From an uncultured Candidatus Saccharibacteria bacterium (lineage in GTDB: Bacteria > Patescibacteriota > Doudnabacteria > UBA920): a stretch of DNA of 64,000 bases. A program made the translations under genes and the position numbers. The DNA is taken from NCBI GenBank assembly GCA_964453265.1, contig CAYVNU010000003.1, positions 3,957 to 67,956 on the forward strand. The letters are read 5' to 3'. Below the pieces are notes generated by a model. The model saw nothing but the letters and a program-made list of their open reading frames with translations. It was not told where the DNA came from and did no database searches. Position 1 is the stretch's first letter. Every line of letters starts with the position of its first letter. Positions 5,051 through 22,719 of the stretch are shown piece by piece.

Positions 5051-8000
5051 TTATTTTTTCTTTTCTTTCTTATATTTCTTGCTGTCTTTTTTAATTTCAT
5101 CTGCAAACAAAGATGCATCGGGCACCTGCTGAGCTTGCATAACTTCTCCCGGCACAATAATCTCCGACTCTTCGGAAGCTGAACTTACTACACCACCTTC
5201 TCCAAGCAATTCAACATCCAAACACAAGCTTTGTAATTCCTTAACCAATACCCTAAAGCTTTCCGGAACGTTTGGCTTTTTTATAGGCTCGCCTTTTACA
5301 ATCGCTTCGTAAGTTTTACTTCTACCAACCACATCGTCCGATTTAATCGTTAACATTTCCTGCAAAGTATGAGCCGCACCATAACCTTCAAGCGCCCAGA
5401 CTTCCATTTCTCCAAACCTCTGTCCGCCGAATTGAGCTTTACCACCAAGTGGCTGCTGAGTAATTAAGCTGTACGGACCGGTGCTGCGAGCATGCATTTT
5501 ATCATCTACCAAATGATGAAGCTTAAGCATATAAGCAACTCCAACCGTTACTTTTTCATCAAATTTTTCTCCGGTTTTACCATCGTACAAAACTACTTTT
5601 CCGCTTTCAGAAATACAACTCTTTTTTAGTTCCTCTTTAATTTGAGTTTCCGAAATACCGTCCAAAACCGGCGTAGCAACATTATAACCAAGTCTTCTTG
5701 CAGCCATACCTAAGTGAGTTTCCAAAATCTGTCCCAAATTCATACGACTAACCACACCAAGAGGATTTAAAATTAAATCCACTGGCGTGCCGTCTTCCAT
5801 AAATGGCAAATCTTCTACCGGGATAATTTTAGAAATAACGCCTTTGTTTCCGTGCCTACCGGCCATTTTGTCACCCACCTGAATTTTTCTAAGCACAGCA
5901 ACAGATACTTGAATAGAACGAATTACTCCAGATGGCAATTTGTCCCCCGCGTCCCGGCTAAATTCTCTTATATTCACAACCTTACCGTATTCGCCGTGAG
6001 GCAAAGTCAAAGAAGTATCTTTTACATCGCGAGATTTTTCACCGAAAATTACACGTAAAAGTTTTTCTTCTGCTGTTAAATCAGTTTCGCCTTTTGGCGT
6101 AATTTTACCTACTAAAATGTCGCCGGCCTTAACCTGTGCGCCAATACGTATCACGCCAGTTTCATCTAAATCTTTTAATTTTTCTTCGCCCACATTCGGA
6201 ATATCCCTTGTAACCTGCTCCGGTCCAAGTTTGGTATCGCGCACATCTATTTTAAAATCGTCAATATGAATTGAAGAATATAAATCTCTTTGTACCACTC
6301 TCTCGGAAACTAAAATAGCATCTTCATAGTTTCCACCTTCCCAAGACATGAACGCCACTAAAACATTTTGCCCCAAAGCCAATTCTCCATTATGAGTCGA
6401 GGCACCGTCTGCCAACAAATCGCCTTTCTTAACCTTTTGTCCTTTAAATACTCTGGCAACTTGGTTTATAGAAGTTGCTGAGTTGGTTCGCAAAAATTTT
6501 AATAAATGATATTCTTTTTTCTTGCCTTTTTCTCCGACTACCACAATTTTATCGCCCATAGCAGAAACTACTTCACCATCTTCTTCGGCTAAAATAACCT
6601 GTCCGCTATCTCTGGCCGCTTTGCCTTCCATACCGGTACCAACAAAAGGCGCGTCCGGCCTTATGCAGGAAACTGCTTGACGTTGCATGTTGCTTCCCAT
6701 AAGCGCACGGTTTGCATCGTCATGTTCCAAAAACGGAATAAGCGAAGTAGTTACGGAAATAATTTGTTTTGGCGATACGTCTAAACAATCAATATCATCT
6801 GTCGCCGCAATACTCGGAACGCTCCGAACACGCACACTGGACCTGGCTGCTTTAAAGTGTTCATTTTCGTCAATTTCAATATTAGACTGCCCAATTACTA
6901 ACTTTTCTTCTTCGTAAGCATCTAAGTAAATAATTTTTTCAGTCACAACCGGCTTTATTCTAATTTCTAAAAGCTGATTGTTCTTGGCAATTTCTTTTGC
7001 TTGTTTTTCAGTAATCTCATGTCCAGCAGAAACCACTAAACCACCTTTTTCATCTTTAACATCATACAAAGAAATTTGGCCAACCGCGGCTTTACCGTCG
7101 TTCTTAACAGCTTTCTTTACCAACCTATATGGAGTTTCTATAAAGCCAAAATCATTAACCCGAGCATAGGTTGCTAAGTGAGCAACAAGTCCAATGTTAG
7201 GACCTTCCGGCGTGGTAATAGGACATAGTCTGCCGTAATGGCTTCTGTGCACATCTCTAACTTCAAAACCCGCGCGTTCCCTGGAAAGTCCACCCGGACC
7301 CATTGCAGAAAGCCTGCGCTTGTGTTCTAACTCAGCCAATGGATTTGTTTGGTCCATGAATTGTGACAATTGCGAAGATGAAAAGAATTCCTGCATAGTC
7401 GCAACTACCGGTCGCACATGAATTAACTGCGCCGGGGTAACAGTTTCCAAATCTGCTAACGACATTCTGTCTTTAGCAATTCTCGCCATACGAGCCAAAC
7501 CGACTCTAAATCTTGTCTGGATTAATTCCCCCACTGCTCTAACGCGTCGATTAGCCAAATGGTCAATATCATCCGGCGTGCCTTGAGTAATATTTAAACG
7601 AATAATTTCTTTTACAACTAAAATTAAATCTTCTTTAGTTAAAAGCCCGCTTTCATTACCCGAAACATTTAAGCGTTGATTAAATTTATAGCGACCGACA
7701 GCAGACAAATCATATCTATCTGCCATAAAAAACATTCCGCTAATTAAAGAGCGGGCATTATCAACCGTAGCTAAATCTCCCGGACGAATTCTTTTATAGA
7801 CTTCTTTAAAACCTTCATCAGCGTTCGTTGAAGCATCTTTTTCCAAAGTATTTTGAATGTATTTTACATCCGGGTCAGTATCTACATCCGTAAAAGCAGC
7901 CAAAATTTCTTCATTGCTAGAAAGGCCGAAAACGCGCAACAAAGCAGTAATAGGTATTCTTCTTTTTCTATCGATTTTTACACCAATCACACCGGCCGCG

Positions 8001-13696: not shown

Positions 13697-14251
13697 TTAC
13701 TTTCCAAGTAATTTTAACGCCTGCTTTATTTGCTCGCCCGTAGTTGCCACTGCATCTAACTTGTTAATTATGCTTCTCACTTCATTTTGCTTATACCCTA
13801 AAGCAATAAGTGCATCAAACACCTCACTGCTTCCACCTGTCACCCGTAACCCGTCACCCGTCACTTTTCCTTTTAGCTCCACTATTATTTTCTCCGCTGT
13901 CTTAGTCCCCACTCCCGAAATACGTGTAAAAATTCCGGCATCTTGGTTTGCAATCGCAGATTTTACCGCATCTACCCTTGCTGACGATAGTATAGCTAAA
14001 GCGACTTTCGGACCTACCCCCGAAACAGTAATAAGCATTTCAAAAAACTGCAAAGTGTTAAAGTCAGACAAACCAAAAAGACTCTGTCCGTCCTCGGAAA
14101 CTTTGTGATATATATAGAGCGAAAGACTATGGCCAATTCTGCTTTCTAAAACTTCCGGCGTTACAAAAACCTTATAACCTACGCCTTGATTTTCAAGGAT
14201 TATAAAGTTAGTAGCCTTCTCTAATATTTTTCCTTGCAAAAAAGCAATCAT
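13697..14251 (-). CDS. ruvA: Holliday junction branch migration protein RuvA
   Basis: 184 aa, MIAFLQGKI start, helix-hairpin-helix GVGPKVALAIL motifs; contains in-frame GDGLRVT repeat insert. Confidence 0.9.
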   Translation of the reverse strand: MIAFLQGKILEKATNFIILENQGVGYKVFVTPEVLESRIGHSLSLYIYHKVSEDGQSLFGLSDFNTLQFFEMLITVSGVGPKVALAILSSARVDAVKSAIANQDAGIFTRISGVGTKTAEKIIVELKGKVTGDGLRVTGGSSEVFDALIALGYKQNEVRSIINKLDAVATTGEQIKQALKLLGK

Positions 14252-14376
14252 AAGCTATGAAATTTTAATTAATACAAATCTATAAATGACTACAAAATAA
14301 TCCATTACAAATTCGTAGTTATTTGTAGCGCCCCCATTTAGTAGATTCGTAGTTATTCTACCACCTCCCAAAGCCG

Positions 14377-14405
14377 TTGACAAAAGGCTTAAATTAGCGT
14401 ATACT
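14377..14405 (+). promoter_or_regulatory. consensus sigma-70 promoter TTGACA-N17-TATACT driving the structured RNA locus
   Basis: ttgaca 14377-14382, exact 17-nt spacer, tatact 14400-14405; predicted TSS near 14413. Confidence 0.65.
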
Positions 14406-14413
14406 TTTGCCAA

Positions 14414-14931
14414 CCTGAGTTGGGGGGATTAGCACTGGTGGTCAGCCATGATCATCAGCTTACCCCTCAAGCTCAAGCCAGCTGGCCTTTAGAAGCAGGG
14501 TCAGTTGGCAACGGCAGTCCTACGAGCAATAAGCCTCAGACGTAGGACTGCCGGTAAAAGTTTTAAAAGCCGCAAGCACTGGCTTGCGGCAGGGCACGAC
14601 TAGAACGCAAAGTTCTAGCATCTGAATCGAATATTCAGAGATGAACACACCAAACCCACCATCGGGATTCCCGTCCCAAGTGTGTTCATCCGCCCTTTGA
14701 GGATTCGGCGCGCCTGACAGATCAGGAGCAGGTGTGCCGAGCTGCGGCCAGGTTCCCATTAATTTGGGGAGTTAAAACTCGAGCTCAGAGCTCACCAGCC
14801 GCAGCAAAAAATTAAGGAGGAAAAAATTTTTTGGCCCCTAAAAAGGGCCGATCGGGGGATGAGCATGCAATGGTGCATGCGCTTGCCCTGGGGGCAAGAG
14901 AAAGCGGGTTCAAATCCCCTATCCCCTACCA
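14414..14931 (+). ncRNA. GC-rich highly structured non-coding RNA of uncertain class (candidate tmRNA/ssrA; alternatively unknown sRNA co-transcribed with a tRNA-like gene)
   Basis: About 55-60% GC in a 35-40% GC genome; many perfect local hairpins (13-bp cggcagtcctacg/cgtaggactgccg, 11-bp gatgaacacac/gtgtgttcatc, 9-bp gccgcaagc/gcttgcggc); starts GGGGGAT right after the promoter and ends with T-arm GGTTCAAATCC, acceptor strand ATCCCCT, A73 and CCA; followed by intrinsic terminator; no conserved RNase P or SRP motifs seen. Confidence 0.45.
14854..14931 (+). tRNA. tRNA-like module (cloverleaf with UGG Pro-like anticodon but C at position 33 and one T-stem mismatch; encoded CCA)
   Basis: 7-bp acceptor stem gggggat/atcccct (G1-U72), D-stem gcat/atgc with GG in loop, anticodon stem cttgc/gcaag, loop cctgggg, canonical T-loop gTTCAAATc, discriminator A, CCA 14929-14931; non-canonical C33 keeps confidence low; may instead be the tRNA-like domain of a tmRNA. 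Confidence 0.4.
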
Positions 14932-14993
14932 GTTTTAGGAGTTCGCCTGAGCATTTTTTGCTCGCACTCCAAAAAATTTATCCTCCTCCTTGA

Positions 14994-15028
14994 GGGCGGC
15001 CAGCAACCAGCTGGTCGCCCTTTTTTTT
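14994..15028 (+). terminator. rho-independent terminator after the RNA locus
   Basis: gggcggccagc-aacc-agctggtcgccc stem followed by TTTTTTTT. Confidence 0.75.
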
Positions 15029-15100
15029 ATTCTCACCACTTTATGTGGCTTTTTTTAATTGTAGAAAAATGTTAAAATGAAAATTGGTCATTAATTAACC

Positions 15101-15250
15101 TATTTGTCGTATTAGTCTTATACGTCCTATAGGTCTTATGTGTCCCATAAGACCTATCCGTCCAATTTGTCCTATAAGTCTTAATAAGTCCTATTTGCCT
15201 TATAAGACTTATCAAGCTGTCCGTCCTATCAAGTCCCGTCCTATACAATT
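15101..15250. repeat. array of palindromic GTCCTAT(A/T)AG(A/G)TCTTAT-type repeats upstream of uvrB (candidate operator array)
   Basis: at least six gtcctat copies, embedded palindromes cctatagg, cttataag and aggtcttatg-N4-cataagacct; a related copy at 45345-45382. Confidence 0.6.
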
Positions 15251-15373
15251 TAAGCTTACTTCAAAATTCCAATCCTCCTTCGCCAAGGCTTCCAACTTCG
15301 CCAAGGCTACGTCGGACGAGTCGGCGGACCTATCGTAATAAATTACATCCGATAATAATCGGAGTTTAGTTTT

Positions 15374-17437
15374 ATGAATAAATTTGTACTAAAATCTAAA
15401 TTTAAGCCCGCCGGAGATCAGCCACGCGCGATTGAGGGTCTTTTAAAGTCGCTTAAAGCAAAAAACCGTTTTCAAACTCTACTTGGCGTTACAGGTAGCG
15501 GCAAGACTTTTACTATGGCCAACATAGTAGAAAAAATTCAAAAACCCACACTAATTATTTCCCACAACAAAACCTTAGCCGCGCAACTTGCCGCGGAATT
15601 TCAAGAATTTTTCCCAGACAACGCGGTTCACTATTTTGTCTCGTATTACGATTATTATCAGCCAGAAGCCTACATCCCCCGTTCAGATACCTACATAGAA
15701 AAAGATACCCAAATAAATGAAGAGATCGATCGTTTGAGAAACGCTGCCACCCAAAGTCTTTTGTCTAGAAAAGATGTTTTAATAGTAGCATCTGTTTCCT
15801 GCATTTACGGTCTTGGCGACCCGGCTAACTATTTAGATTTGGCAATGAGTTTTAAAGAAGGAAAGGATTATAAACGAGACAAGTTACTTAGAAGACTAAC
15901 AGATTTACAGTACCACCGTAACGACACAGAACTAGTGCGCGGCACTTACCGCGTGCAAGGTGATGTAGTAGAAATTATCCTTTCGAGCGAAGACACCATT
16001 ATTCTAATGGATTTTTTTGGCGACACGCTAGAAAAAATAGAAAGATTGGATGCCGTAAGTGGACACAAAATAGAAACCTTAGAAGAATTTACCATTTTTC
16101 CCGCTAAGCACTTTGTCACGCCCGAAGAAAAACTAAAAGCTGCTACAGAAAATATTCGTGCAGAAATGTTAGACCGAGTAAAATATTTTAAGTCCCAAAA
16201 CAAACTTATAGAGGCTCAAAGAATAGAACAACGTACAAACTTTGACTTAGAAATGTTAAGTAATACAGGCTTTGTTTCCGGTATAGAAAACTACTCTAGG
16301 CAAATAGAAGGGCGTGAAGCGGGCTCTGCTCCGTCTACTTTAATTGACTACTTTCCCGACGACTTTTTACTTTTTGTAGACGAGTCACATCAAACTATTC
16401 CGCAAATTGGCGCTATGTACGAGGGCGACAAGTCGCGCAAAACCAACTTGGTTGACTACGGTTTCAGACTCCCCTCTGCGCTCGACAACCGTCCGCTTAA
16501 GTTTGATGAATTTGAAAAGAAAATTAATCAAGTCGTTTTTGTTTCAGCAACGCCGGCGCCTTTTGAAATTTTAGCCTCTGTAAACCAAAAAATTCCTAAA
16601 AAGGTTGAGGGTGAAAAATTAATGGTTACCGATGTTAAGCAGACAGACACTATAGTCGAGCAGTTAATAAGACCGACCGGCCTACTCGACCCCACCATAG
16701 AAATAAAGCCCATAAAAAACCAGGTTGATGATTTAATAGAACGCATACATGAACGTATAAAAAAACATCAACGCGTGTTGGTTGCCACACTAACTAAACG
16801 CATGGCCGAGGAACTAACCGAGTACTTAAAAGAAGACGGAGTAAAAGTGCAGTACCTGCACAGCGATGTAGATACTTTTGAACGTTTAGAGATTTTGCGC
16901 GATTTAAGACTTGGCGTTTTCGATGTTTTAGTCGGCATTAACTTACTCAGAGAAGGTTTAGATTTACCCGAAGTTTCTTTAGTTGCAATTCTAGATGCGG
17001 ACAAAGAAGGATTCCTTCGCTCTGAAACTTTCTTTATGCAAATGATGGGCAGAGCAGCGCGTCACCTTGAAGGTCATGTTGTAATGTACGCAGATAGAAT
17101 TACAGGAAGTATGCAAAGAGGGATTGATGAAACCACCCGCAGAAGAAAAATCCAAGAAGCCTACAATAAAAAACACGGTATAACCCCCAAAGGCATACAA
17201 AAAGCTATTGCCGATTCGCGCATGGCAGGCCAAAGGTCCCCCGAAGCTTTAGCGGAGGGGGAAAGCAAACTATATCGTGACCCAAGCCGTATGGACAAAG
17301 AAGAACTAAAATTCTACCTCCACGAACTAGAAGAACAGATGGATTTAGCAGCAAAAAATTTGGAGTTTGAGACAGCCGCAAAGATTCGCGATAGAATTGA
17401 AGAAATAAAAACCTTAAAACGTTTGAGTAAAAAATAA
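15374..17437 (+). CDS. uvrB: excinuclease ABC subunit B
   Basis: 687 aa, GVTGSGKTFTMANI Walker A, UvrB helicase motifs and C-terminal UVR domain (EFETAAKIRDRIEEIK). Confidence 0.97.
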   Translation: MNKFVLKSKFKPAGDQPRAIEGLLKSLKAKNRFQTLLGVTGSGKTFTMANIVEKIQKPTLIISHNKTLAAQLAAEFQEFFPDNAVHYFVSYYDYYQPEAYIPRSDTYIEKDTQINEEIDRLRNAATQSLLSRKDVLIVASVSCIYGLGDPANYLDLAMSFKEGKDYKRDKLLRRLTDLQYHRNDTELVRGTYRVQGDVVEIILSSEDTIILMDFFGDTLEKIERLDAVSGHKIETLEEFTIFPAKHFVTPEEKLKAATENIRAEMLDRVKYFKSQNKLIEAQRIEQRTNFDLEMLSNTGFVSGIENYSRQIEGREAGSAPSTLIDYFPDDFLLFVDESHQTIPQIGAMYEGDKSRKTNLVDYGFRLPSALDNRPLKFDEFEKKINQVVFVSATPAPFEILASVNQKIPKKVEGEKLMVTDVKQTDTIVEQLIRPTGLLDPTIEIKPIKNQVDDLIERIHERIKKHQRVLVATLTKRMAEELTEYLKEDGVKVQYLHSDVDTFERLEILRDLRLGVFDVLVGINLLREGLDLPEVSLVAILDADKEGFLRSETFFMQMMGRAARHLEGHVVMYADRITGSMQRGIDETTRRRKIQEAYNKKHGITPKGIQKAIADSRMAGQRSPEALAEGESKLYRDPSRMDKEELKFYLHELEEQMDLAAKNLEFETAAKIRDRIEEIKTLKRLSKK

Positions 17438-17484
17438 AAAAACAAAGATGACCATTGCACTGTGCGATGGTCATCTTTGTTTTA
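17438..17484. terminator. bidirectional rho-independent terminator
   Basis: caaagatgaccat-loop-atggtcatctttg 13-bp stem with flanking A and T runs between convergent uvrB and TrmB-like gene. Confidence 0.75.
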
Positions 17485-17493
17485 AATGTAAAT

Positions 17494-18249
17494 CTACTTT
17501 CCTACTACCCTCTCATACTTCTCCGCGCTTTGCCAAGCCATTTCAAAAATGGTTTTAAGGGAAGTTACCACGCCTTTGCTGGTAATAACCACGACAAATA
17601 AGTAAGGCGAATAAGAAAAAAAGGCTACACTGTCTTTAAAAAAAACATTGTCGGTTAGAAATTGCATATTTTTTGGCACAAATCTGTTTTCATAAAATTC
17701 GTGCTGCGGCATTTTACGCGCGTGGATTAAGTCTTCCGCACTTTGCGTTAAGAGTTCCCGTACTTTTATTTTTTTTGCCAAAGCCATATTCTTTAATTCG
17801 CCCGGCATATATTCAAACGCACCCATTACGTCGGAAATATTACAAAAAAAATCTACCTCAGGGGAGGCAAAAACTTTTTTGTAAACTTCCAAAACACCCT
17901 CTTTGCCTTCAAACAACTGAATTTGCGGCTTTTCAACTTTTGCGTTATAAAGCGCCAGCATATTCGGCATAAACCTTTTTACCATTTCCTGCTTTTTGTG
18001 TAAGTCCCCTATTATTTTTTCCGGGCTCTCTGCGGTATAGAGAGCTTTTTTTGCGCGTGGCACCACGCTAACCAAACCTTTTTTTACCAACTGTTCCAAA
18101 ATTAAATAGGTAGTCGGCCGCTTTATTTCCGCTTTATTGGAAATGGGGTGCACCGTAGCAGTACCCAATTCCAAAAGCGCCAAATAAACTTGCGCTTCCT
18201 TTTCGTCTAAACCTACTTGTTTTAATACATTTACTATTTCCATGTGCAT
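17494..18249 (-). CDS. TrmB-family transcriptional regulator
   Basis: N-terminal winged-helix LGLDEKEAQVYLALLELGTATVHPISNKAEIKRPTTYLILEQLVKKGLV typical of TrmB sugar-responsive regulators. Confidence 0.7.
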   Translation of the reverse strand: MHMEIVNVLKQVGLDEKEAQVYLALLELGTATVHPISNKAEIKRPTTYLILEQLVKKGLVSVVPRAKKALYTAESPEKIIGDLHKKQEMVKRFMPNMLALYNAKVEKPQIQLFEGKEGVLEVYKKVFASPEVDFFCNISDVMGAFEYMPGELKNMALAKKIKVRELLTQSAEDLIHARKMPQHEFYENRFVPKNMQFLTDNVFFKDSVAFFSYSPYLFVVVITSKGVVTSLKTIFEMAWQSAEKYERVVGK

Positions 18250-18254
18250 TTATT

Positions 18255-18375
18255 CCTTCTCCTTTTAAGGAGAGGGTTAGGGAGAGGTTGAATTCTATAG
18301 ATAGCAACAATACTACATGTCATCCCGGCCTGCGACATTATCCTCCGTAGCTTTAGCGAAGGATGGAGCCGGGAT
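18255..18375. repeat. composite intergenic repeat: palindromic element (family A) plus CCGTAGCWTTAGCGAAGGA element (family B) flanked by atcccggc/gccgggat inverted repeat
   Basis: ccttctccttttaaggagagggttagggagagg at 18255-18287 resembles in-gene copies at 12386-12424 and 62899-62934; ccgtagctttagcgaagga at 18345-18363 matches 24072-24090. Confidence 0.6.
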
Positions 18376-18503
18376 CCAGTTTAATTAGCTATTTCCATTA
18401 TATTCCCCTTTCTCATTTTTGTCAACTTTTCTGACAAATAAATAATACTTAATGAATATACCTATAAACAAAGCTATTTAGTATATTTAATTAGTCATAC
18501 TTA

Positions 18504-18532
18504 TTGACTATATGCTAAATTTATGACATAAT
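18504..18532 (+). promoter_or_regulatory. sigma-70-like promoter TTGACT-N17-CATAAT upstream of GC-rich gene
   Basis: ttgact 18504-18509, 17-nt spacer, cataat 18527-18532. Confidence 0.45.
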
Positions 18533-18644
18533 TGCAAGTTATAAAAAATAACAGTCCAGGGAGCCTGCGGGACTAAAAACTTGGGGTGATACTCTGGCGA
18601 GAGTTTCTAAATACGCGTGACAATCCTGAAGGAGGATTTAAAAA

Positions 18645-19358
18645 ATGCCTGCATATACGATCGCTGACTTCGCCCGGAAACACAAAGGCCTGCGTGTGAT
18701 CGCCCGCCGCCATGCGGTGTACAACAAACCCGTGCTTGGACTGGACGCCCTTACAATGGCTGCGCTCATCTACTCGCGCACCATTGACCCGCAACTTCTT
18801 GGCCTAAGTGCCGAGGGCATGGAACAGATGTACAACCAGGGCGAGCTGCTTGCGGAAATGGGACTTGTTCCTGACCGCATAGTCACAGGCATTGACCTGC
18901 GCAACTGGGAAGGCGGGATGCAAACCGTCGCTGCCATCAAGGCCAAAACCGGCAATGTAGTTCCCTGCCACCGCAGCCCGGCCGTAACCTATCCGTACTA
19001 CGATGCCATGAAGACCGTAGAGGTGTATGAAAAGTACGGTGACCAGGCCGTACACGCTTACCTGTCCGAACAGCCCGGAACGGAAGGACTGTGGACTGAG
19101 TCGGCCGCGGACTTTATGAACCGGATCGAAATGTCAGTTGCGTCAGTAGCGTGGCCGGGAATCACGCTATTTGATCTCAACTTCGAGCAAATGACATTCC
19201 TGCATTTCCACCTTGTCGAGCACCTGCGGCAAGTTGAGATTCCATTTGGCCCCGACGCCTGGTGTCCTAAAAACGGCGGAGGGATCGTCATCGCCAACGA
19301 CGACGCTGTGGGCGAGTTCCACCCGGATCTCACCATGGTTATCAAGATCGTAAGCTAG
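18645..19358 (+). CDS. hypothetical protein encoded on a GC-rich (about 58%) island; likely horizontally acquired
   Basis: 237 aa ORF with strong SD ggagga 8 nt upstream; codon usage/GC sharply different from flanks; many spurious overlapping ORFs in other frames typical of GC-rich DNA; followed by 9-bp-stem hairpin gggagagac/gtctctccc. Confidence 0.6.
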   Translation: MPAYTIADFARKHKGLRVIARRHAVYNKPVLGLDALTMAALIYSRTIDPQLLGLSAEGMEQMYNQGELLAEMGLVPDRIVTGIDLRNWEGGMQTVAAIKAKTGNVVPCHRSPAVTYPYYDAMKTVEVYEKYGDQAVHAYLSEQPGTEGLWTESAADFMNRIEMSVASVAWPGITLFDLNFEQMTFLHFHLVEHLRQVEIPFGPDAWCPKNGGGIVIANDDAVGEFHPDLTMVIKIVS

Positions 19359-19462
19359 CTGGCATCCGACGGCTACAAGGGAGAGACAAACCACGCACAG
19401 TGGCGTCCGTCTCTCCCTACCCTTTATTAGTCCTTAATAAATTAAGCATTAATAATAGGTAT

Positions 19463-19786
19463 ATGAAATTATTACTCAAAGGCTTAGGCGCAAGCCAAGG
19501 CACAGTAGAGGGTGAAGCTAAAATCTTTTTACCCGGGGAAGCTAATAAAGACTTTCCGGAAGGCGCGATTTTAGTTACCACCTTAACCGACCCGACCATG
19601 GTTCAGGCCATGGTTAAAGCCGTAGGTATTGTTACAGATATTGGCGGCATCACTTCTCACCCAGCAATTTTAAGTCGGGAAATGGGTATTCCTTGCGTAG
19701 TTAGCACTAAACAAGGTACTCAAATAATTAAAGACGGGATGAAAATTTTTATTGACGGTACAAAAGGAGAAGTTTATGCCGTATAA
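19463..19786 (+). CDS. stand-alone PEP-utilizing enzyme mobile (phosphohistidine swivel) domain protein
   Basis: GIVTDIGGITSHPAILSREMGIPCVVS matches GGxTSHAAIxARExGIPxVVG motif of PEP synthase/PPDK central domain; start set at MKLLLKG. Confidence 0.75.
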   Translation: MKLLLKGLGASQGTVEGEAKIFLPGEANKDFPEGAILVTTLTDPTMVQAMVKAVGIVTDIGGITSHPAILSREMGIPCVVSTKQGTQIIKDGMKIFIDGTKGEVYAV

Positions 19787-19829
19787 AGTCTTCTAAAAAA
19801 TTATTTATAAACATTAACCTGATTTAAAT

Positions 19830-20954
19830 ATGATTCAATCTGCCAATTCAAAAGAAATTCCAGAGAATAAAAACTGGATTAGAGATTTTGCCCAAGCGTC
19901 TTTTAAACTATATTCGGGTAATACTATAGATGCATTCCAGCCTCTAGACTTTTTTCATTTTTACCCGCTCTGGTACGATTTATGGGTAAACAGATTTATG
20001 TCTGTAATGGATGTTTTACAATGCGATTATAAAAGCTATCAAGAATTAAAACACTTATTACCCGTACCTTCCAGTATGAGAGCAATTTTACAAAAGCTCA
20101 TCCCAACTTTTGCAGGCGTAGACCCCATGCATGCAAAAAACTTTGGTAGGATGGCAAATTTTTTCACGCGCATGCTTAAAGAAAGCTGTGCGGAAGACCC
20201 TTTTGGTTTTAGCCACAACCCTCTTCATACCAGAAATGAACTAAACGAAATAATTCAAAACACCCCCTGGCAACCAGCAACTCCCGAAATTGCCAAACAA
20301 CTAGGACAACTAATTACCGCAGCCGGCTCCTTAGTGCACGGCTTATATAATGACGTAGTTACAGATTTCGGTTGGGATGCCTATGGACCTTACAACATAG
20401 TTTTGCCTGAAAAAAAATATCAAATAATTATTCGTCACTTTCCAGATCTTGCGCCAAAAGAAATATGGGAAAGTAAATTTTTAACACCGGTTCAAGATAT
20501 AAAAATCTATCAATTTTACGAAAACGTAGAATGGGAATTAGCTTTTTTAGGCTGCCATACAGTGCTTAAATCGGGTAGCCCAGTACTTGGATTAAAATAC
20601 TTTGCCATATCTATAAACGAAAAATTTATTACCCCAAATATTATACAGCCCATAATACAAGAATTTAGCGAAAAAGCTGTTAGCATATATAAAGAAATTA
20701 GAAAAAAAGATTTTGAAGAATTAAAACAATTGGTAATGATTCAAGAATGCTACCAACTACACAAAATATTTTCTGCCGCCTACATGAACTGGCAGCCTAC
20801 GGAAGAAATGTTGGAAAAAATAAAAAACCAACCTCTTACTTCTAACTTATTACCTTTTGGCAGATTAATGACCAGCCTTGATGAATACAAAGAACTTTTT
20901 CATATAAATAAATTCGAAAAAGAAGTTTTAGACTTTCCCACTGTTAAGGCATAA
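19830..20954 (+). CDS. hypothetical protein (374 aa), possibly partner of the mobile-domain protein
   Basis: long ORF with lineage-typical codon usage, no recognisable motif. Confidence 0.5.
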   Translation: MIQSANSKEIPENKNWIRDFAQASFKLYSGNTIDAFQPLDFFHFYPLWYDLWVNRFMSVMDVLQCDYKSYQELKHLLPVPSSMRAILQKLIPTFAGVDPMHAKNFGRMANFFTRMLKESCAEDPFGFSHNPLHTRNELNEIIQNTPWQPATPEIAKQLGQLITAAGSLVHGLYNDVVTDFGWDAYGPYNIVLPEKKYQIIIRHFPDLAPKEIWESKFLTPVQDIKIYQFYENVEWELAFLGCHTVLKSGSPVLGLKYFAISINEKFITPNIIQPIIQEFSEKAVSIYKEIRKKDFEELKQLVMIQECYQLHKIFSAAYMNWQPTEEMLEKIKNQPLTSNLLPFGRLMTSLDEYKELFHINKFEKEVLDFPTVKA

Positions 20955-20965
20955 AGCCTTAATCC

Positions 20966-21017
20966 CGTATGTCACCCGCACAAGGATTCCCCTTGTTGTT
21001 TACAAGGGGAATCCTTG
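20966..21017 (+). terminator. terminator-like perfect 17-bp hairpin
   Basis: cacaaggattccccttg-ttgttta-caaggggaatccttgtg followed by ttta; second 7-bp hairpin tgtcaag/cttgaca just downstream. Confidence 0.55.
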
Positions 21018-21184
21018 TGTTTACCTCATGTCAAGACATAGAGCCTTGACAGAAAGGGTAAAAAATAATAAAATATTTTGAAAATCCCGGGCTTTTTTCT
21101 GGGATTTTTAATTTTAAAAATAGCAGGGGGACTGTATTCATGTCTGCTAAATAGCTAAAAATAGCTTTTGGTTATTTTGCGGAC

Positions 21185-21865
21185 ATGAAAAATCATATTA
21201 TTCTTTTGGCCACGCTATGCGTGGCCACCCTGTGTCCAAGGGGGGCGCTTGGACAATGGGAGGCCGAGGCGCGGCTGGCGCCTCACACTCCCAAAGAATT
21301 TTCGGAAGGACATGGCGAGTCCTTCCGGAACGTGGGGGAGGCATGGTTCCGTCTCCCCTCCCTGCGGGGTTTCCGCGGGGAAACAGGAGCCTTCCGGACC
21401 GGCGACTCGTTTGTCGCCGTGTTCGGAGTTGAAAAGGAGTTGGCACACGACCAACTCCTGCCAGGCATTTTTGCCTGGGTTGATTCCGGCGGCATCCGGC
21501 CTGCCGCTGGGATCTCGTGGGCTCGGCATAGCCGAGTAGCTTTAGAGGGGCACGCCATTATGGCGTCCCCGAAAAAACTGCTCGGCCGCAGTGACGCAAG
21601 CCTAAGCCTCACAAGAGGCTTTGCGCTTGGTGTTACTGCCGAGCTAGACCCTGCCCCACACGGCAGGGCGTGGGGTTTGGGGCCTCACGTTAAAAAACAA
21701 ATCAAAGGAGCCGAGCTGGTGCTCGGCCACCTTTGGAAAATTGAAGGGGAAGGAGCCGAACGCCACGGCGAACCTTCCACTCACCCCATGAACCGCGAAT
21801 GGTTCGTGGGTATTAAATTCGCTCTCGGCCACCCCAAGGCCGAGGGCAAAAAATCTCACCACTAG
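21185..21865 (+). CDS. secreted hypothetical protein on second GC-rich (about 62%) island; possible outer-membrane beta-barrel/lipid A deacylase-like
   Basis: N-terminal signal peptide MKNHIILLATLCVATLCPRGALGQ, glycine/aromatic-rich, C-terminal EWFVGIKFALGHP; all six frames open across 21198-21862 as expected for GC-rich coding DNA. Confidence 0.5.
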   Translation: MKNHIILLATLCVATLCPRGALGQWEAEARLAPHTPKEFSEGHGESFRNVGEAWFRLPSLRGFRGETGAFRTGDSFVAVFGVEKELAHDQLLPGIFAWVDSGGIRPAAGISWARHSRVALEGHAIMASPKKLLGRSDASLSLTRGFALGVTAELDPAPHGRAWGLGPHVKKQIKGAELVLGHLWKIEGEGAERHGEPSTHPMNREWFVGIKFALGHPKAEGKKSHH

Positions 21866-21876
21866 CTGATGAGTAG

Positions 21877-21912
21877 GGGCCAGGACATAGCGTTCCTGTC
21901 CCCTTGTTTTTT
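21877..21912 (+). terminator. rho-independent terminator
   Basis: cagga-catagcg-ttcctg hairpin then ccccttgTTTTTTTTc. Confidence 0.6.
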
Positions 21913-22028
21913 TTCTGCAATTTTGGTAAAATACGAAAAGTCTGAGTAATTAAATTTTTCATCCGTGTCGGATAAATTTTATTATCAGATAAGCATAATA
22001 CATTATTCTTAATACATAATACTTTTCT

Positions 22029-22298
22029 ATGCCAAATACTAAATCCGCAATGAAAGCCATGCGCCAGTCTATTACCAGACGCGCACGAAACATTGCCCAA
22101 AAAGATACTTTTAAAACCGCAGTTAAAGAAGTAAAAAAACTTATTACTGCCGGCAAAAAATCTGAAGCCATGGAAGCCATGAAAAAGGCTATGTCCACTT
22201 TAGACAAAGCCGTTAAAAAAGGAGTAATTAAGAAAAATACTTCTTCTCGAAAAAAATCCAGAATGGCAAAAGCTATAGCAAAATTAAAAACCGCTTAA
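22029..22298 (+). CDS. rpsT: 30S ribosomal protein S20
   Basis: MPNTKSAMKAMRQSITRRARN N-terminus and lysine/alanine-rich 89 aa typical of bS20; terminator hairpin aaaaccgc-ttaa-ggcggttttt overlaps stop. Confidence 0.9.
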   Translation: MPNTKSAMKAMRQSITRRARNIAQKDTFKTAVKEVKKLITAGKKSEAMEAMKKAMSTLDKAVKKGVIKKNTSSRKKSRMAKAIAKLKTA

Positions 22299-22306
22299 GG
22301 CGGTTT

Positions 22307-22719
22307 TTAATTTGTATAAAGTATTATGTATTGGGTATTGGGTATAAGGCTTCTACAGCTCTTAATTAAACCATGTATTAACTTATCGCACTTTAATGAT
22401 TGGTTTTCGATCTCCCTATACTTTTCTTCTTCTAAATAACCAATTCCTTTACTTAAATCTGCCTGGCTCCTAACTTCTGTTAGAGAGCCCAAAGCTGTAT
22501 AATAAAATTGAATCTTTTCCTTAAATGAATTTCTGCTAAAGCCTTCGCAATATTTGAAGCAATGGAAATTACAGCCCGTCTTATTTGCGATGTAATGCCA
22601 AACAATTCTTCTTTTGGAAAATTTTTAGTAATCTTATAGACTAAAATAGCTAGATTATAAGCTTCCTGCCAAGCGTATAAATCACGAAATGATTGTATTT
22701 TGTTTTGCGCCTTATACAT
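22307..22719 (-). pseudogene. four-helix-bundle protein gene (23S rRNA intervening-sequence protein family) disrupted by a -1 frameshift
   Basis: N-terminal part QSFRDLYAWQEAYNLAILVYKITKNFPKEELFGITSQIRRAVISIASNIA then frame change; +2 frame continues EGFSRNSFKEKIQFYYTALGSLTEVRSQADLSKGIGYLEEEKY, i.e. the family consensus NIAEGFxRxSxKEFxxFLxIAxGSLxE; a single missing G at about 22541-22547 restores the frame. Confidence 0.7.

Follow-up and report, generated by a model that had tools for sequence, protein, structure and literature searches.

A highly structured non-coding RNA is probably encoded as an independent gene between ruvA and uvrB on a chromosome of Candidatus Doudnabacteria (CPR/Patescibacteria). 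It would belong to an undescribed Doudnabacteria family that always occupies this interval, and we consider this reading reasonably likely as a whole, that is, together with the module origin, the processing and the SD/anti-SD role proposed below. The family, which we call the Doudnabacteria ruvA-uvrB intergenic structured RNA, was defined in the present analysis; it is not in Rfam 15 and has been found so far only between these two genes in Candidatus Doudnabacteria. Its features in the window, as we term the whole stretch of 64,000 nucleotides analyzed, are given in Table 1. A preliminary description of the locus had hesitated between a tmRNA and an unclassified composite non-coding RNA. The second option is supported by the evidence presented here and can be sharpened to a member of a locus-specific RNA family.

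Table 1. Positions of the RNA gene's features and of neighboring signals in the window
Feature	Position	Strand	Remarks
ruvA promoter, TTGTCA-N17-TAGAAT with TG extension	14355-14383	-	Back to back with the RNA promoter
RNA-gene promoter, TTGACA-N17-TATACT	14377-14405	+	-35 at 14377-14382, -10 at 14400-14405; 11/12 consensus positions
Variable 5' domain, successive G+C-rich hairpins, mostly perfect, with 7-13 bp stems	14416-14740	+	MFE fold
GC helix, GCUGCGGC(C) at 14741-14749 with GCCGCAGC at 14797-14804, three small hairpins inside	14741-14804	+	MFE fold
A-rich linker, SD-like AAGGAGG (14814-14820) and 5' strand of closing helix	14805-14834	+	Predicted pairing probability ~1.0
Small hairpin GGCCC-CUAAAAA-GGGCC	14833-14849	+	Counterpart in L003: GCCGC-UAU-GCGGC
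tRNA-like cloverleaf, 78 nt	14854-14931	+	UGG at the anticodon position; CCA at 14929-14931
Pa module: helix GGAGU/ACUCC, internal loop, hairpin GAGC-AUUUUUU-GCUC, then A-run	14938-14970	+	Conserved family core
3' strand of closing helix, anti-SD-like tract UCCUCCUCC	14969-14989	+	Pairs with 14814-14834
Intrinsic terminator	14992-15030	+	Stem 14992-15022 with 13 pairs, 9 of them G-C, then T8 to 15030
Second small hairpin and T-run (CCACUUUAUGUGG-U7)	15036-15056	+	Kept in L003 and L162

Transcription signals, fold and coding potential

The promoter had been announced as perfect; it is present at the position given for it, though near-consensus rather than perfect, and is the second-best site of a promoter scan across 14000-22500. 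As a class, promoter-like sites are not enriched in that region (16 seen versus 16.0 expected), so that support for the RNA promoter comes from conservation: about 30 relatives have a TTGAC(A/T)-N16-18-TAnnnT promoter in the corresponding place. Its -35 hexamer overlaps that of the promoter of the divergent operon ruvA-femAB-mur ligase, which encodes a FemAB-family transferase, and a motif ATTCTACCA...TTGACAAAA is kept in this double promoter region among relatives. Transcription would start near 14412 and the primary transcript would extend to 15030, a length of roughly 620 nt with both ends predicted. The terminator reported in the preliminary description is the strongest of our terminator scan, and the hairpin that follows it is probably a back-up terminator. 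Further downstream, uvrB has its own conserved extended -10 element, TGTTAAAAT (15070-15078), about 300 nt 5' of its start, which indicates from sequence that the RNA gene is a unit independent of uvrB.

This arrangement bears on the idea that the RNA is a long 5' leader or attenuator for uvrB, or divergently for ruvA, acting through regulated termination or SD sequestration. The RNA indeed has the orientation of uvrB and lies immediately upstream of it in all relatives, its SD-like motif is predicted to be masked by an anti-SD tract beside the terminator, and its promoter overlaps that of ruvA back to back. However, the two tandem terminators come before the separate uvrB element, neither a start codon nor a peptide is conserved after the SD-like motif, and RNAs of 300-640 nt that are hypervariable differ from known leaders. 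We thus regard a leader function as improbable.

About 600 nt of the RNA gene have a GC content of 53%, and the segment 14501-15000 reaches 0.522 against ~0.38 in the flanks; the region had rightly been described as GC-rich and structured. The minimum free energy of 14412-15032 is -299.3 kcal/mol, compared to -202.7 +/- 6.7 in dinucleotide shuffles (z = -14.5). A second shuffle estimate (z = -14.9) lies inside the range of the family (-3 to -15), and ordinary genes of the window have z values of ~0 in this test. The hairpins of the 5' domain are mostly perfect, and this domain is not alignable even with the closest relatives. A CsrB-like sponge presenting GGA in its loops was considered and dropped because the hairpin loops of the window RNA, inspected by eye, have no GGA motifs. 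Another G+C-rich, over-structured island occurs elsewhere in the window. An island at 21046-21915 may encode either a secreted protein or a further structured RNA.

Several observations argue for a non-coding transcript. No full-length ORF was found in the RNA, a tblastx comparison between spacers matched in the flanks only and not in the RNA interior, and the peptide that follows the SD-like motif is not conserved, its length and sequence being unrelated among relatives. These results weigh against an mRNA that encodes a small protein or several, such as a type I toxin whose ribosome-binding site is sequestered. Such an mRNA would fit the strong SD UAAGGAGG, followed 10 nt downstream by a UUG that opens a 35-codon frame, and the masking of this SD by a distant anti-SD, as in toxin mRNAs; but the 35-codon frame crosses the tRNA-like module and several family members have no start codon after the SD-like motif, which leaves very little probability for this reading. 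ORFs called inside the RNA, such as a 79-aa 'protein' in public gene calls, appear spurious and should leave protein catalogues.

A family with a conserved scaffold and a variable interior

About 30 relatives possess, between ruvA and uvrB, a predicted promoter-to-terminator transcript that is GC-rich, over-structured and non-coding, with promoter and terminator conserved on one strand. Hundreds of RuvA homologues were recovered, the majority on short Logan contigs. The window copy has the attributes of this family: its own promoter back to back with that of ruvA, the uvrB strand and a strong terminator before uvrB. Structure excess amounts to z = -3 to -15 in 22/24 relatives, and the two exceptions (~0 and -1) carry protein-coding inserts. 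A homologous RNA is present at the same locus in the closest relatives, L003 and L162 (RuvA 93% identical). The RNA interior is unconserved even where flanking proteins are 92-93% identical, and an nhmmer search with the window interior against 160+ loci retrieved matches only in the same strain. Interiors of family RNAs turn over fast, with compensatory changes in stems, as seen in 25/124 predicted pairs of the L021/L039/L089 subfamily, and G.U pairs of the helices are retained on the sense strand. The comparative alignment advocated in the preliminary description thus detected covariation in the stems of this subfamily and in the Pa module, but the window's 5' domain and tRNA-like module have no alignable homologue; covariation therefore supports the family and the Pa module only.

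Searches of known families returned no assignment. Rfam 15 gave no family at gathering score in the window or in six relatives, and nothing relevant at permissive E-values; RNase P, SRP, 6S, YrlA, GOLLD, ROOL, OLE, HEARO and raiA were thereby set aside at both gathering and permissive thresholds. The covariance-model scan proposed earlier accordingly found no known family, its tRNA hit being sub-threshold (see below). A full-text literature search turned up no account of an RNA of this kind in CPR. A phage origin was rejected, as the RNA has no match in phage records and viral contigs, and so was a repeat or mobile-element family, since a repeat search of the window showed every part of the RNA to be single-copy there.

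Members of the nearest clade share a scaffold made up, in order, of GC helix, A-rich linker, SD-like AAGGAGG, Pa, CCUCC-type tract and terminator, with the SD-like and Pa motifs kept at the sequence level. Across the family, the SD-like motif reads AAGGAGG or AAGAGGR, and Pa, located 3' of it, is composed of a covarying 5-bp helix, an internal loop, a GAG...CUC hairpin and an A-run. The window copy holds every one of these elements, and its 78-nt tRNA-shaped module is located between the SD-like motif and Pa. The GC-helix counterpart in relatives, GCCGCGGCGG/CCGCCGCGGC, is equated with the window helix by position and sequence type only; in L163/L164 it immediately precedes the SD-like motif, and in L004, L165 and L166 it is placed farther upstream. 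The 25-mer at 14809-14833, which encompasses the SD-like motif, shows 100% identity to L003. In family RNAs, GGAGGA and AAGAGG belong to the k-mers that recur most often, and TCCTCC, present in 14/22 of them, is the most recurrent 6-mer bar the terminator T-run.

These purine and pyrimidine tracts are predicted to pair with each other. The 21-nt complementarity previously noticed around the tRNA-like module is real, with a predicted pairing probability of ~1.0 in the window, yet imperfect: it consists of an exact 11-mer and, beyond a small internal loop, an AGGAGGA/TCCTCCT segment. Pairing of the SD-like core with a pyrimidine tract that immediately precedes the terminator is likewise predicted in L003, L162, L166 and L005. 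Overall, an SD:anti-SD helix is predicted in 5-6 of the 11 members tested, or about half, so that this pairing is recurrent, not universal.

The Pa module is the conserved core of the family. A purpose-written structural pattern, designed after the window had been inspected, matched the window once (14938-14970) versus 6 background sites in 3.3 Mb. A covariance model (R1), built with the window left out of the seed, had its top window match at 14936-14977, with a modest score of 20.8 bits and a roughly calibrated E-value of 0.019; in 671 kb of relatives, the window was the sole non-seed match at E <= 1. In the Pa helix, all five pairs (5/5) have changes in both partners, and the paired fraction of cells is 95.7%. 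Of 500 shuffles, none attains the covariation score or the paired percentage of the real alignment, and a single one (1/500) attains its number of pairs with both partners changed. We dropped a kink-turn reading of the Pa internal loop because tandem G.A pairs are absent from it.

We may also hypothesize that the locus has no RNA function and represents fast-evolving, G+C-rich palindromic DNA with a tRNA pseudogene, transcribed incidentally or never, and originating for example from hairpin-generating mutation or from insertion scars at a tRNA hot spot. The lack of interior conservation and the unusual perfection of the stems are in line with this hypothesis, as is the fact that the sense-strand MFE is more stable than the antisense in 15/30 family members. 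Foreign sequence is also tolerated at the locus, with an HTH/transposase-like ORF inserted in L009 and a whole gene in L030, and the additional structured island mentioned above can be cited on the same side. Against it, relatives conserve the promoter and the terminator on one strand, sequence and order of the SD-like and Pa motifs are retained, helices are kept by compensatory changes with G.U pairs on the sense strand, and neither a repeat family in the window nor a match in phage and viral collections was found. We see the palindromic DNA hypothesis as unlikely, while giving it some weight.

The tRNA-like module

Folded alone, the segment 14854-14931 forms a predicted four-way junction. 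It displays a cloverleaf with a 7-bp acceptor, a T-loop GGTTCAAATCC of the GTTCRANYC type, G18G19, a discriminator A (A73), an encoded 3' CCA and a G37 beside UGG. Most of this had been recognized in the preliminary description, including the UGG anticodon, C33 and the T-stem mismatch, all of which can be read from the sequence; only the start is displaced, by one base upstream of the position implied there. The departures from a standard tRNA are numerous: G8 instead of U8, G14, no A14/A21, C33 in place of U33, a residue near-universal in tRNAs, a C.C mismatch in the T-stem and a G1.U72 pair. In the MFE fold, the anticodon arm can alternatively adopt a 7-bp stem capped by a 3-nt loop. The Rfam tRNA model (RF00005) scores the module at 22.7 bits for a cut-off of 29, and ARAGORN, silent at default settings, calls a tRNA-Pro(tgg) only at an 85% threshold.

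The two closest relatives have no tRNA-like domain at the locus, neither T-arm nor acceptor, and the module is therefore a lineage-specific insert of probable tRNA origin. In the same way, relatives without any tRNA share the scaffold, hence the tRNA is the insert and not the host. A lineage-specific, sub-threshold, tRNA(Pro-UGG)-like insert is thus supported. A 13-nt likeness, GGGGGAT.AGCA, is observed between 14423 and 14854 (11/13 identical). Readings of this likeness as a target-site duplication, or of the locus as a group I intron inside a tRNA, were rejected because the scaffold is common to tRNA-free relatives.

Other lineages carry different tRNAs at the ruvA-uvrB locus. Clear identities comprise Gly(GCC), Ala(UGC) and Ala(GGC), with a tRNA-Ala in L020 and a tRNA-Gly in L166. 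Decayed modules are also seen, with a broken acceptor stem in L169 and a lost anticodon arm in L170, as well as modules with abnormal anticodon loops in L013, L019, L090, L096 and L097. Decay by different routes in L169 and L170 fits a passenger pseudogene equally well as a module selected for processing.

Could the module be a functional tRNA-Pro(UGG) gene flanked by an extended, structured leader and trailer, which would make the locus a tRNA operon? Its cloverleaf, UGG with G37, A73, encoded CCA, intact T-loop and G18G19 would be expected of such a gene, and bona fide tRNAs occupy the locus in L020 and L166. Nevertheless, the sub-threshold Rfam score, the silence of ARAGORN at default, the irregularities at positions 8, 14, 21 and 33, in the T-stem and at G1.U72, and the absence of the module in L003 and L162 all speak against decoding activity, and we hold this reading to be doubtful at best.

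A tmRNA (ssrA) was the other identity initially entertained: a 5' GGGGGAU and a 3' AUCCCCU-A-CCA would form the acceptor stem, with an internal tag ORF translated in trans-translation. The T-loop and CCA are present, and the GGGGGAT heptamer does occur near the predicted 5' end (14423-14429), from where it could pair with 14919-14925; in the MFE fold, however, its G-run pairs locally with CCCCUC, and the 3' module is a self-contained cloverleaf. ARAGORN finds no gene of any kind in the window at default and no tmRNA at the relaxed threshold (85%) either, while the Rfam tmRNA families (tmRNA, alpha, beta and cyano) give nothing at E <= 10 in 14300-15100. AlaRS needs G3:U70, and the 3:70 pair is G-C in either pairing, as read from the sequence. 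The preliminary description had already failed to find a convincing tag ORF; indeed no tag frame is conserved in relatives, and the candidate tags it proposed have no counterpart in L003 or L162. An essential gene would be expected in these closest relatives, whose homologous RNA has no tRNA-like domain. Finally, typical tmRNAs are far shorter than the ~510 nt implied here. The tmRNA reading is close to refuted.

Proposed processing, related systems and significance

For the structured RNA gene that we favor, we propose the following scenario. A tRNA-Pro(UGG)-like gene copy may have landed in a strongly expressed stable-RNA unit, giving rise to the tRNA-like module; this origin is suggested by the Ala, Gly or decayed tRNAs found at the same locus in other lineages. 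As the acceptor/T-arm minihelix and the elbow look intact, RNase P and RNase Z or a CCA-adding enzyme probably excise the module. Excision would release three products: a 5' RNA of ~440 nt that has the SD-like motif at its end, a ~77-nt tRNA-like RNA, and a 3' fragment with Pa and the anti-SD tract. The scaffold would most likely act by SD/anti-SD mimicry, self-masked by the internal helix, and its target would be either mRNA ribosome-binding sites or the 16S 3' end. This last proposal is the weakest step of the scenario.

A more specialized role may be envisioned, in which the locus encodes a CPR-specific RNA that is either directed to the ribosome, as an SD mimic tethered to a tRNA mimic, or involved in aminoacyl transfer. 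In the ribosomal version, the RNA would dock on the 30S subunit, with its SD on the 16S 3' end and the tRNA-like arm in a tRNA site, leading to sequestered or rescued ribosomes; it would then be functionally analogous to tmRNA, yet unrelated. In the other version, the FemAB-family transferase of the divergent operon would receive non-ribosomal (aminoacyl-)tRNA-like donors from the locus. Fem-type enzymes typically use Gly and Ala, the amino acids to which the tRNAs of clear identity at the locus in relatives correspond. We consider either version a long shot.

Comparison with known systems helps to situate the RNA. As in tmRNA, a long G+C-rich stable RNA combines a T-arm, a 7-bp acceptor helix and a 3' CCA with an internal mRNA-like purine-rich element, but the tRNA-like part folds locally into a complete cloverleaf and is not a helix between the 5' and 3' ends. 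tRNAs of stable-RNA operons, such as rRNA spacer tRNAs, offer another parallel: a tRNA-shaped unit in a strongly promoted and terminated stable-RNA transcript, a long-range helix of ~20 bp around the unit that could be an RNase III-type processing stem, and tRNA identities differing by lineage. Here, however, the host RNA is unclassified rather than ribosomal and the embedded unit is sub-threshold as a tRNA. MALAT1 and NEAT1 are eukaryotic lncRNAs whose 3' ends result from RNase P cleavage at a tRNA-like structure. Their mascRNA and menRNA resemble our module as non-decoding cloverleaves 3' of a long structured RNA, with adjoining A/U-rich tracts, and RNase P and RNase Z would plausibly make the ends here as well. 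The window RNA is bacterial and its module is not conserved in the family; the comparison concerns a possible way of working, not membership.

Among bacterial RNAs, YrlA and other Y RNAs also have a tRNA-mimicking domain, but the window RNA is much larger, has another architecture and no Rfam match, and no rsr (Ro) or rtcB neighbor was seen in the ORFs scanned. The conserved UCCUCC/UCCC tracts, able to pair with GGAGG, recall C-rich sRNAs of the RsaE/RoxS type, notably in L163 and L004 where they sit in a hairpin loop; the masking of an internal SD-like sequence by such tracts recalls ROSE and fourU thermometers. The window RNA is several times longer than either and has no sequence homology to them. 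OLE, GOLLD, ROOL, HEARO and raiA likewise are RNAs of several hundred nucleotides that are G+C-rich in a low-GC genome, and GOLLD and ROOL often lie beside tRNAs. The present RNA differs from them in being unmatched by Rfam, far less conserved in sequence and located on a chromosome, not a phage.

Bacteria have few large structured non-coding RNAs, several of which proved to have unexpected biochemistry. To our knowledge, almost nothing has been reported on RNA biology in the Candidate Phyla Radiation. The ruvA-uvrB locus provides a testable RNA gene that keeps its position, promoter, terminator, overall foldedness and some short motifs between close relatives, yet replaces most of its sequence. 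The repeated entry of tRNA genes into this locus, followed by their decay, could inform on how tRNA-like modules are recruited into other RNAs. Should SD/anti-SD mimicry prove functional, it would point to a translational regulator of a new kind in organisms whose regulatory repertoires are minimal.

The transcription unit and its surroundings

The candidate structured RNA gene between ruvA and uvrB begins and ends with the promoter and intrinsic terminator that the preliminary description had pointed out (see table). The region scanned has no overall excess of promoter-like sites (16 seen versus 16.0 expected), so we base the promoter call on its conservation in relatives and not on the match alone. 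Since the terminator is followed by a second hairpin with its own T-run and by a separate extended -10, the RNA forms a transcription unit of its own. Its sequence is richer in G+C than the surroundings, as had been claimed (52% for 14501-15000, versus about 38%). The wealth of hairpins is borne out: the minimum free energy (MFE) of 14412-15032 is -299 kcal/mol, versus -203 +/- 7 for dinucleotide shuffles (z = -14.5), and ordinary genes of the window (uvrB, ruvA, femAB, rpoB) score z of about 0 in the same test. The long-range complementarity between 14814-14834 and 14969-14989, described as 21 nt, does exist but consists of two parts: one is an exact 11-mer, the other AGGAGGA/TCCTCCT.

Features of the RNA gene and its surroundings (window coordinates; L numbers are relatives' contigs or loci)
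Feature	Position	Strand	Remarks
ruvA promoter	14355-14383	-	same -35 region as RNA promoter; conserved ATTCTACCA (= TGGTAGAAT)
RNA promoter, TTGACA-N17-TATACT	14377-14405	+	sequence scan
79-aa gene call	14520-14759	-	inside the RNA
GC helix, GCUGCGGC/GCCGCAGC	14741/14797	+	GCCGCGGCGG/CCGCCGCGGC in relatives
tRNA-like module	14854-14931		78 nt
Pa module, 5-bp helix GGAGU/ACUCC	14938-14970	+	relatives: GCGAG/CUCGC, GUGAG/CUCAC, ACGAG/CUCGU, ACAAG/CUUGU
Intrinsic terminator	14992-15030	+	strongest of 8.5-kb scan
Second small hairpin, T-run	15036-15056	+	3' of terminator
Extended -10, TGTTAAAAT	15070-15078	+	conserved; 3' of second hairpin
About 10 tandem-like copies of 9-nt unit GTCCTATAA	15106-15194		between RNA terminator and uvrB
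CC(N)CC hairpin	15270-15330, 18340-18375 (-)		also L003 9937-9965; L004, L090, L092 upstream of uvrB
237-aa ORF	18540-19358		leader of about 100 nt, 18540-18640
Second G+C-rich island	21046-21915		226-aa ORF, 21185-21865

The RNA and ruvA promoters stand back to back (14355-14405) with overlapping -35 hexamers (TTGACAA/TTGTCAA), which may couple the RNA's transcription to that of the ruvA-femAB-mur ligase operon or make the two mutually exclusive. In public gene calls a 79-aa 'protein' lies on the opposite strand inside the RNA, as seen in the metagenomic contigs L001 and L002; this ORF is very likely spurious and a result of the RNA gene's high G+C content. The same strain is found on two metagenomic contigs. 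L002 differs from the window in the RNA region by just three substitutions (14378, 14385, 14415), which affect the -35 hexamer, the spacer and the first transcribed bases and leave the structured body untouched.

The setting is chromosomal: rpoB/rpoC, an ABC transporter, a Mur ligase-femAB-ruvA operon (- strand), the RNA, then uvrB, a TrmB-type regulator gene and polA. UvrB (15374-17437) shares 92% identity with its counterpart in a MAG labelled uncultured Candidatus Saccharibacteria; for many MAGs under that label or Candidatus Doudnabacteria the identity is 75-86%. On the uvrB side, the 9-nt arrays are similar and equally placed in L003, L162, L090 and L171, and may represent an operator array or a structured uvrB 5' UTR. 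A small hairpin, CC(N)CC-TTCGCTAAAGCTAY-GG(N)GG, has a conserved loop and covarying stems (CCGCC/GGCGG versus CCTCC/GGAGG). Relatives have it a short way 5' of uvrB, and the window has it 5' of the gene for the TrmB-type regulator; it may represent a recurring motif of 5' UTRs or one for protein binding. Its five matches in the window (1.55 expected; 3 of 100 shuffles reach five) are not clearly above chance.

Two further G+C-rich stretches were observed. The island upstream of rpsT (G+C 0.59) has its own TTGACA-N17-TAAAAT promoter, a terminator-like end and an ORF with a signal-peptide-like start; it is extremely over-structured, with z of -18 for 21075-21915 and -9.5 inside the ORF. At the same position, L003, L004 and L005 carry ORFs of 212-220 aa (z -4.4 to -5.8) with no detectable protein similarity among each other. 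The island may encode a fast-evolving secreted protein or be another structured RNA. The 237-aa ORF (G+C 0.56) has a strong Shine-Dalgarno (SD) sequence and no Pfam match, is conserved in L004 and is not over-structured (z -0.3); conservation of its leader extends to L008 and L012. Next come a PEP-utilizers mobile-domain gene and a 374-aa ORF without Pfam match, and together these may form an uncharacterised operon whose leader acts in cis as a regulator.

tRNA and tmRNA models applied to the CCA end

A tmRNA had been proposed from the tRNA-like end of the RNA. The elements named are all present: T-loop GGTTCAAATCC, a 7-8-bp acceptor stem, discriminator A and CCA, and these last 78 nt ahead of the trailer fold alone into a four-way junction. 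ARAGORN reported neither tRNA nor tmRNA in the whole window, and Rfam 15 gave no match at gathering thresholds. With Rfam at E <= 10, 14300-15100 yielded no tmRNA family, the only relevant match being tRNA at 22.7 bits (cut-off 29). The suggested Pro(UGG) near-cloverleaf, with its C33 and T-stem mismatch, has the features described but is called tRNA-Pro(tgg) (14860-14931) only at an ARAGORN threshold of 85%, again with no tmRNA. Direct reading of the module shows G8, G14, C33, a T-stem C.C mismatch, G1.U72 and G3-C70, so that neither the decoding-tRNA invariants nor the tmRNA alanine identity pair is present. The 5' GGGGGAU (14423), put forward as the acceptor-stem partner, is there but pairs locally in the MFE structure. 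With the models silent, the identity pair missing and this heptamer engaged locally, we reject tmRNA; a scoreable tRNA is rejected on its sub-threshold 22.7 bits, the silence of ARAGORN at default and the missing invariants. GGGGGAT.AGCA recurs at the RNA start (14423-14435) and the module start (14854-14866) with 11 of 13 positions identical (chance about 0.005, estimated before allowing for the G-run).

A family with replaced interiors and a shared scaffold

In relatives, ruvA and uvrB are adjacent. In about 30 of them, TTGAC(A/T)-N16-18-TAnnnT lies directly upstream of ruvA, pointing away from it, followed by a G+C-rich stretch of 290-985 nt closed by a hairpin and T-run. These transcripts are over-structured (z = -3 to -15) except in L009 (z about 0) and L037 (about -1), both of which contain protein-coding inserts. 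A protein-coding reading of the RNA is rejected: tblastx between the loci found no similarity in the interiors, no full-length ORFs were found, and the peptides after the SD-like motif are unrelated among relatives. No Rfam family matched the relatives' RNAs. Interiors are replaced fast: L003, whose UvrB is 92% identical, aligns in just three pieces, namely the promoter, a 25-mer (AAATTAAGGAGGAAAAAATTTTTTG, 100% identical) and the region directly 3' of the terminator.

Closer relatives, collected via RuvA homologues, share a scaffold. Its order is variable hairpins, GC helix, A-rich linker with an SD-like AAGGAGG/AAGAGGR, optional small hairpin, Pa module (an internal-loop hairpin), A-run, pyrimidine CCUCC-type tract and terminator. 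The Pa helix encloses ..CUU-[GAG..CUC]-GC. A custom structural pattern for Pa, drawn up after the window had been seen, matches once in the window (14938-14970); 3.3 Mb of sequence from elsewhere gave six background matches. A covariance model (R1) was built from six relatives with the window left out. Its best match on both strands of the window is 14936-14977 (20.8 bits, roughly calibrated E 0.019), the sole non-seed match at E <= 1 in a search of 671 kb of relatives. In the Pa alignment each of the five pairs shows changes on both sides, with 95.7% of cells paired. None of 500 shuffles matched the covariation score or percentage paired, one matched the both-sides-changed count, and slid controls were 23-52% paired. 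Covariation is thus shown for parts of the scaffold. In a more distant subfamily (L021/L039/L089), 25 of 124 pairs show compensatory changes, and direct reading of close pairs (L163/L164, L087/L088, L169/L170) shows hairpin tips replaced and stem bases kept. Leaving aside the T-run of the terminator, no k-mers recur more than GGAGGA, AAGAGG and TCCTCC. Predicted folds pair the SD-like core with a pyrimidine tract directly 5' of the terminator in about half of the members tested, including the window's copy, L003, L162, L166 and L005.

tRNA units at the locus and possible function

In L003 and L162 the SD-like motif and small hairpin lead directly into Pa, with no tRNA-like module; in the window, GAUC, the 78-nt cloverleaf and GUUUUA stand between hairpin and Pa. 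By this comparison the module is an insert. Other lineages also carry tRNA units at this place, preserved to every degree: canonical (L020 tRNA-Ala(UGC); L166/L167 tRNA-Gly(GCC)), with abnormal anticodon loops (L013, 427-506, a 5-nt insertion, 58.6 bits; L019, L090, L096; and L097, where a GAAA tetraloop caps the arm), or broken differently in sister copies (L169 without acceptor pairing, L170 without anticodon arm). tRNA genes thus enter the unit repeatedly, and decay or remodelling follows. The window's module may be kept for processing or stability, or may be a passenger on its way out.

L013 also has a second tRNA at about 507-625, with a D-region insertion of about 45 nt, and L037 an 89-nt class-II-like 'tRNA-Ile' (6078-6166). 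Some relatives (L166, about 1-960 of the locus, reverse strand; L164) show a second promoter-driven RNA after the first, in which a CCUCC-loop-GGAGGAAUUUUA hairpin directly precedes a canonical tRNA-Gly(GCC) with CCA; the SD-like motif thus also recurs right before real tRNAs.

That the unit also hosts tRNA genes suggests that its transcript is a stable RNA. The cloverleaf would be cut by RNase P and RNase Z, and the closing helix of about 20 bp is a possible RNase III-type stem. Conservation of GGAGG/CCUCC as sequence, and not merely as pairs, suggests interaction with ribosome-binding sites or the 16S 3' end.

No curated Rfam family matches and a literature search found no such RNA in the Candidate Phyla Radiation (CPR), which agrees with the alternative of an unclassified RNA in the preliminary description. 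The window's RNA is a member of the family, which is real and unclassified and has low conservation; the tRNA-like CCA end, the feature noticed first, is not a family trait. The most fitting description is that of a new structured RNA, restricted to one lineage, in which a tRNA-derived unit is embedded: its types of parts are already known, while the family is new and so is the way it evolves.
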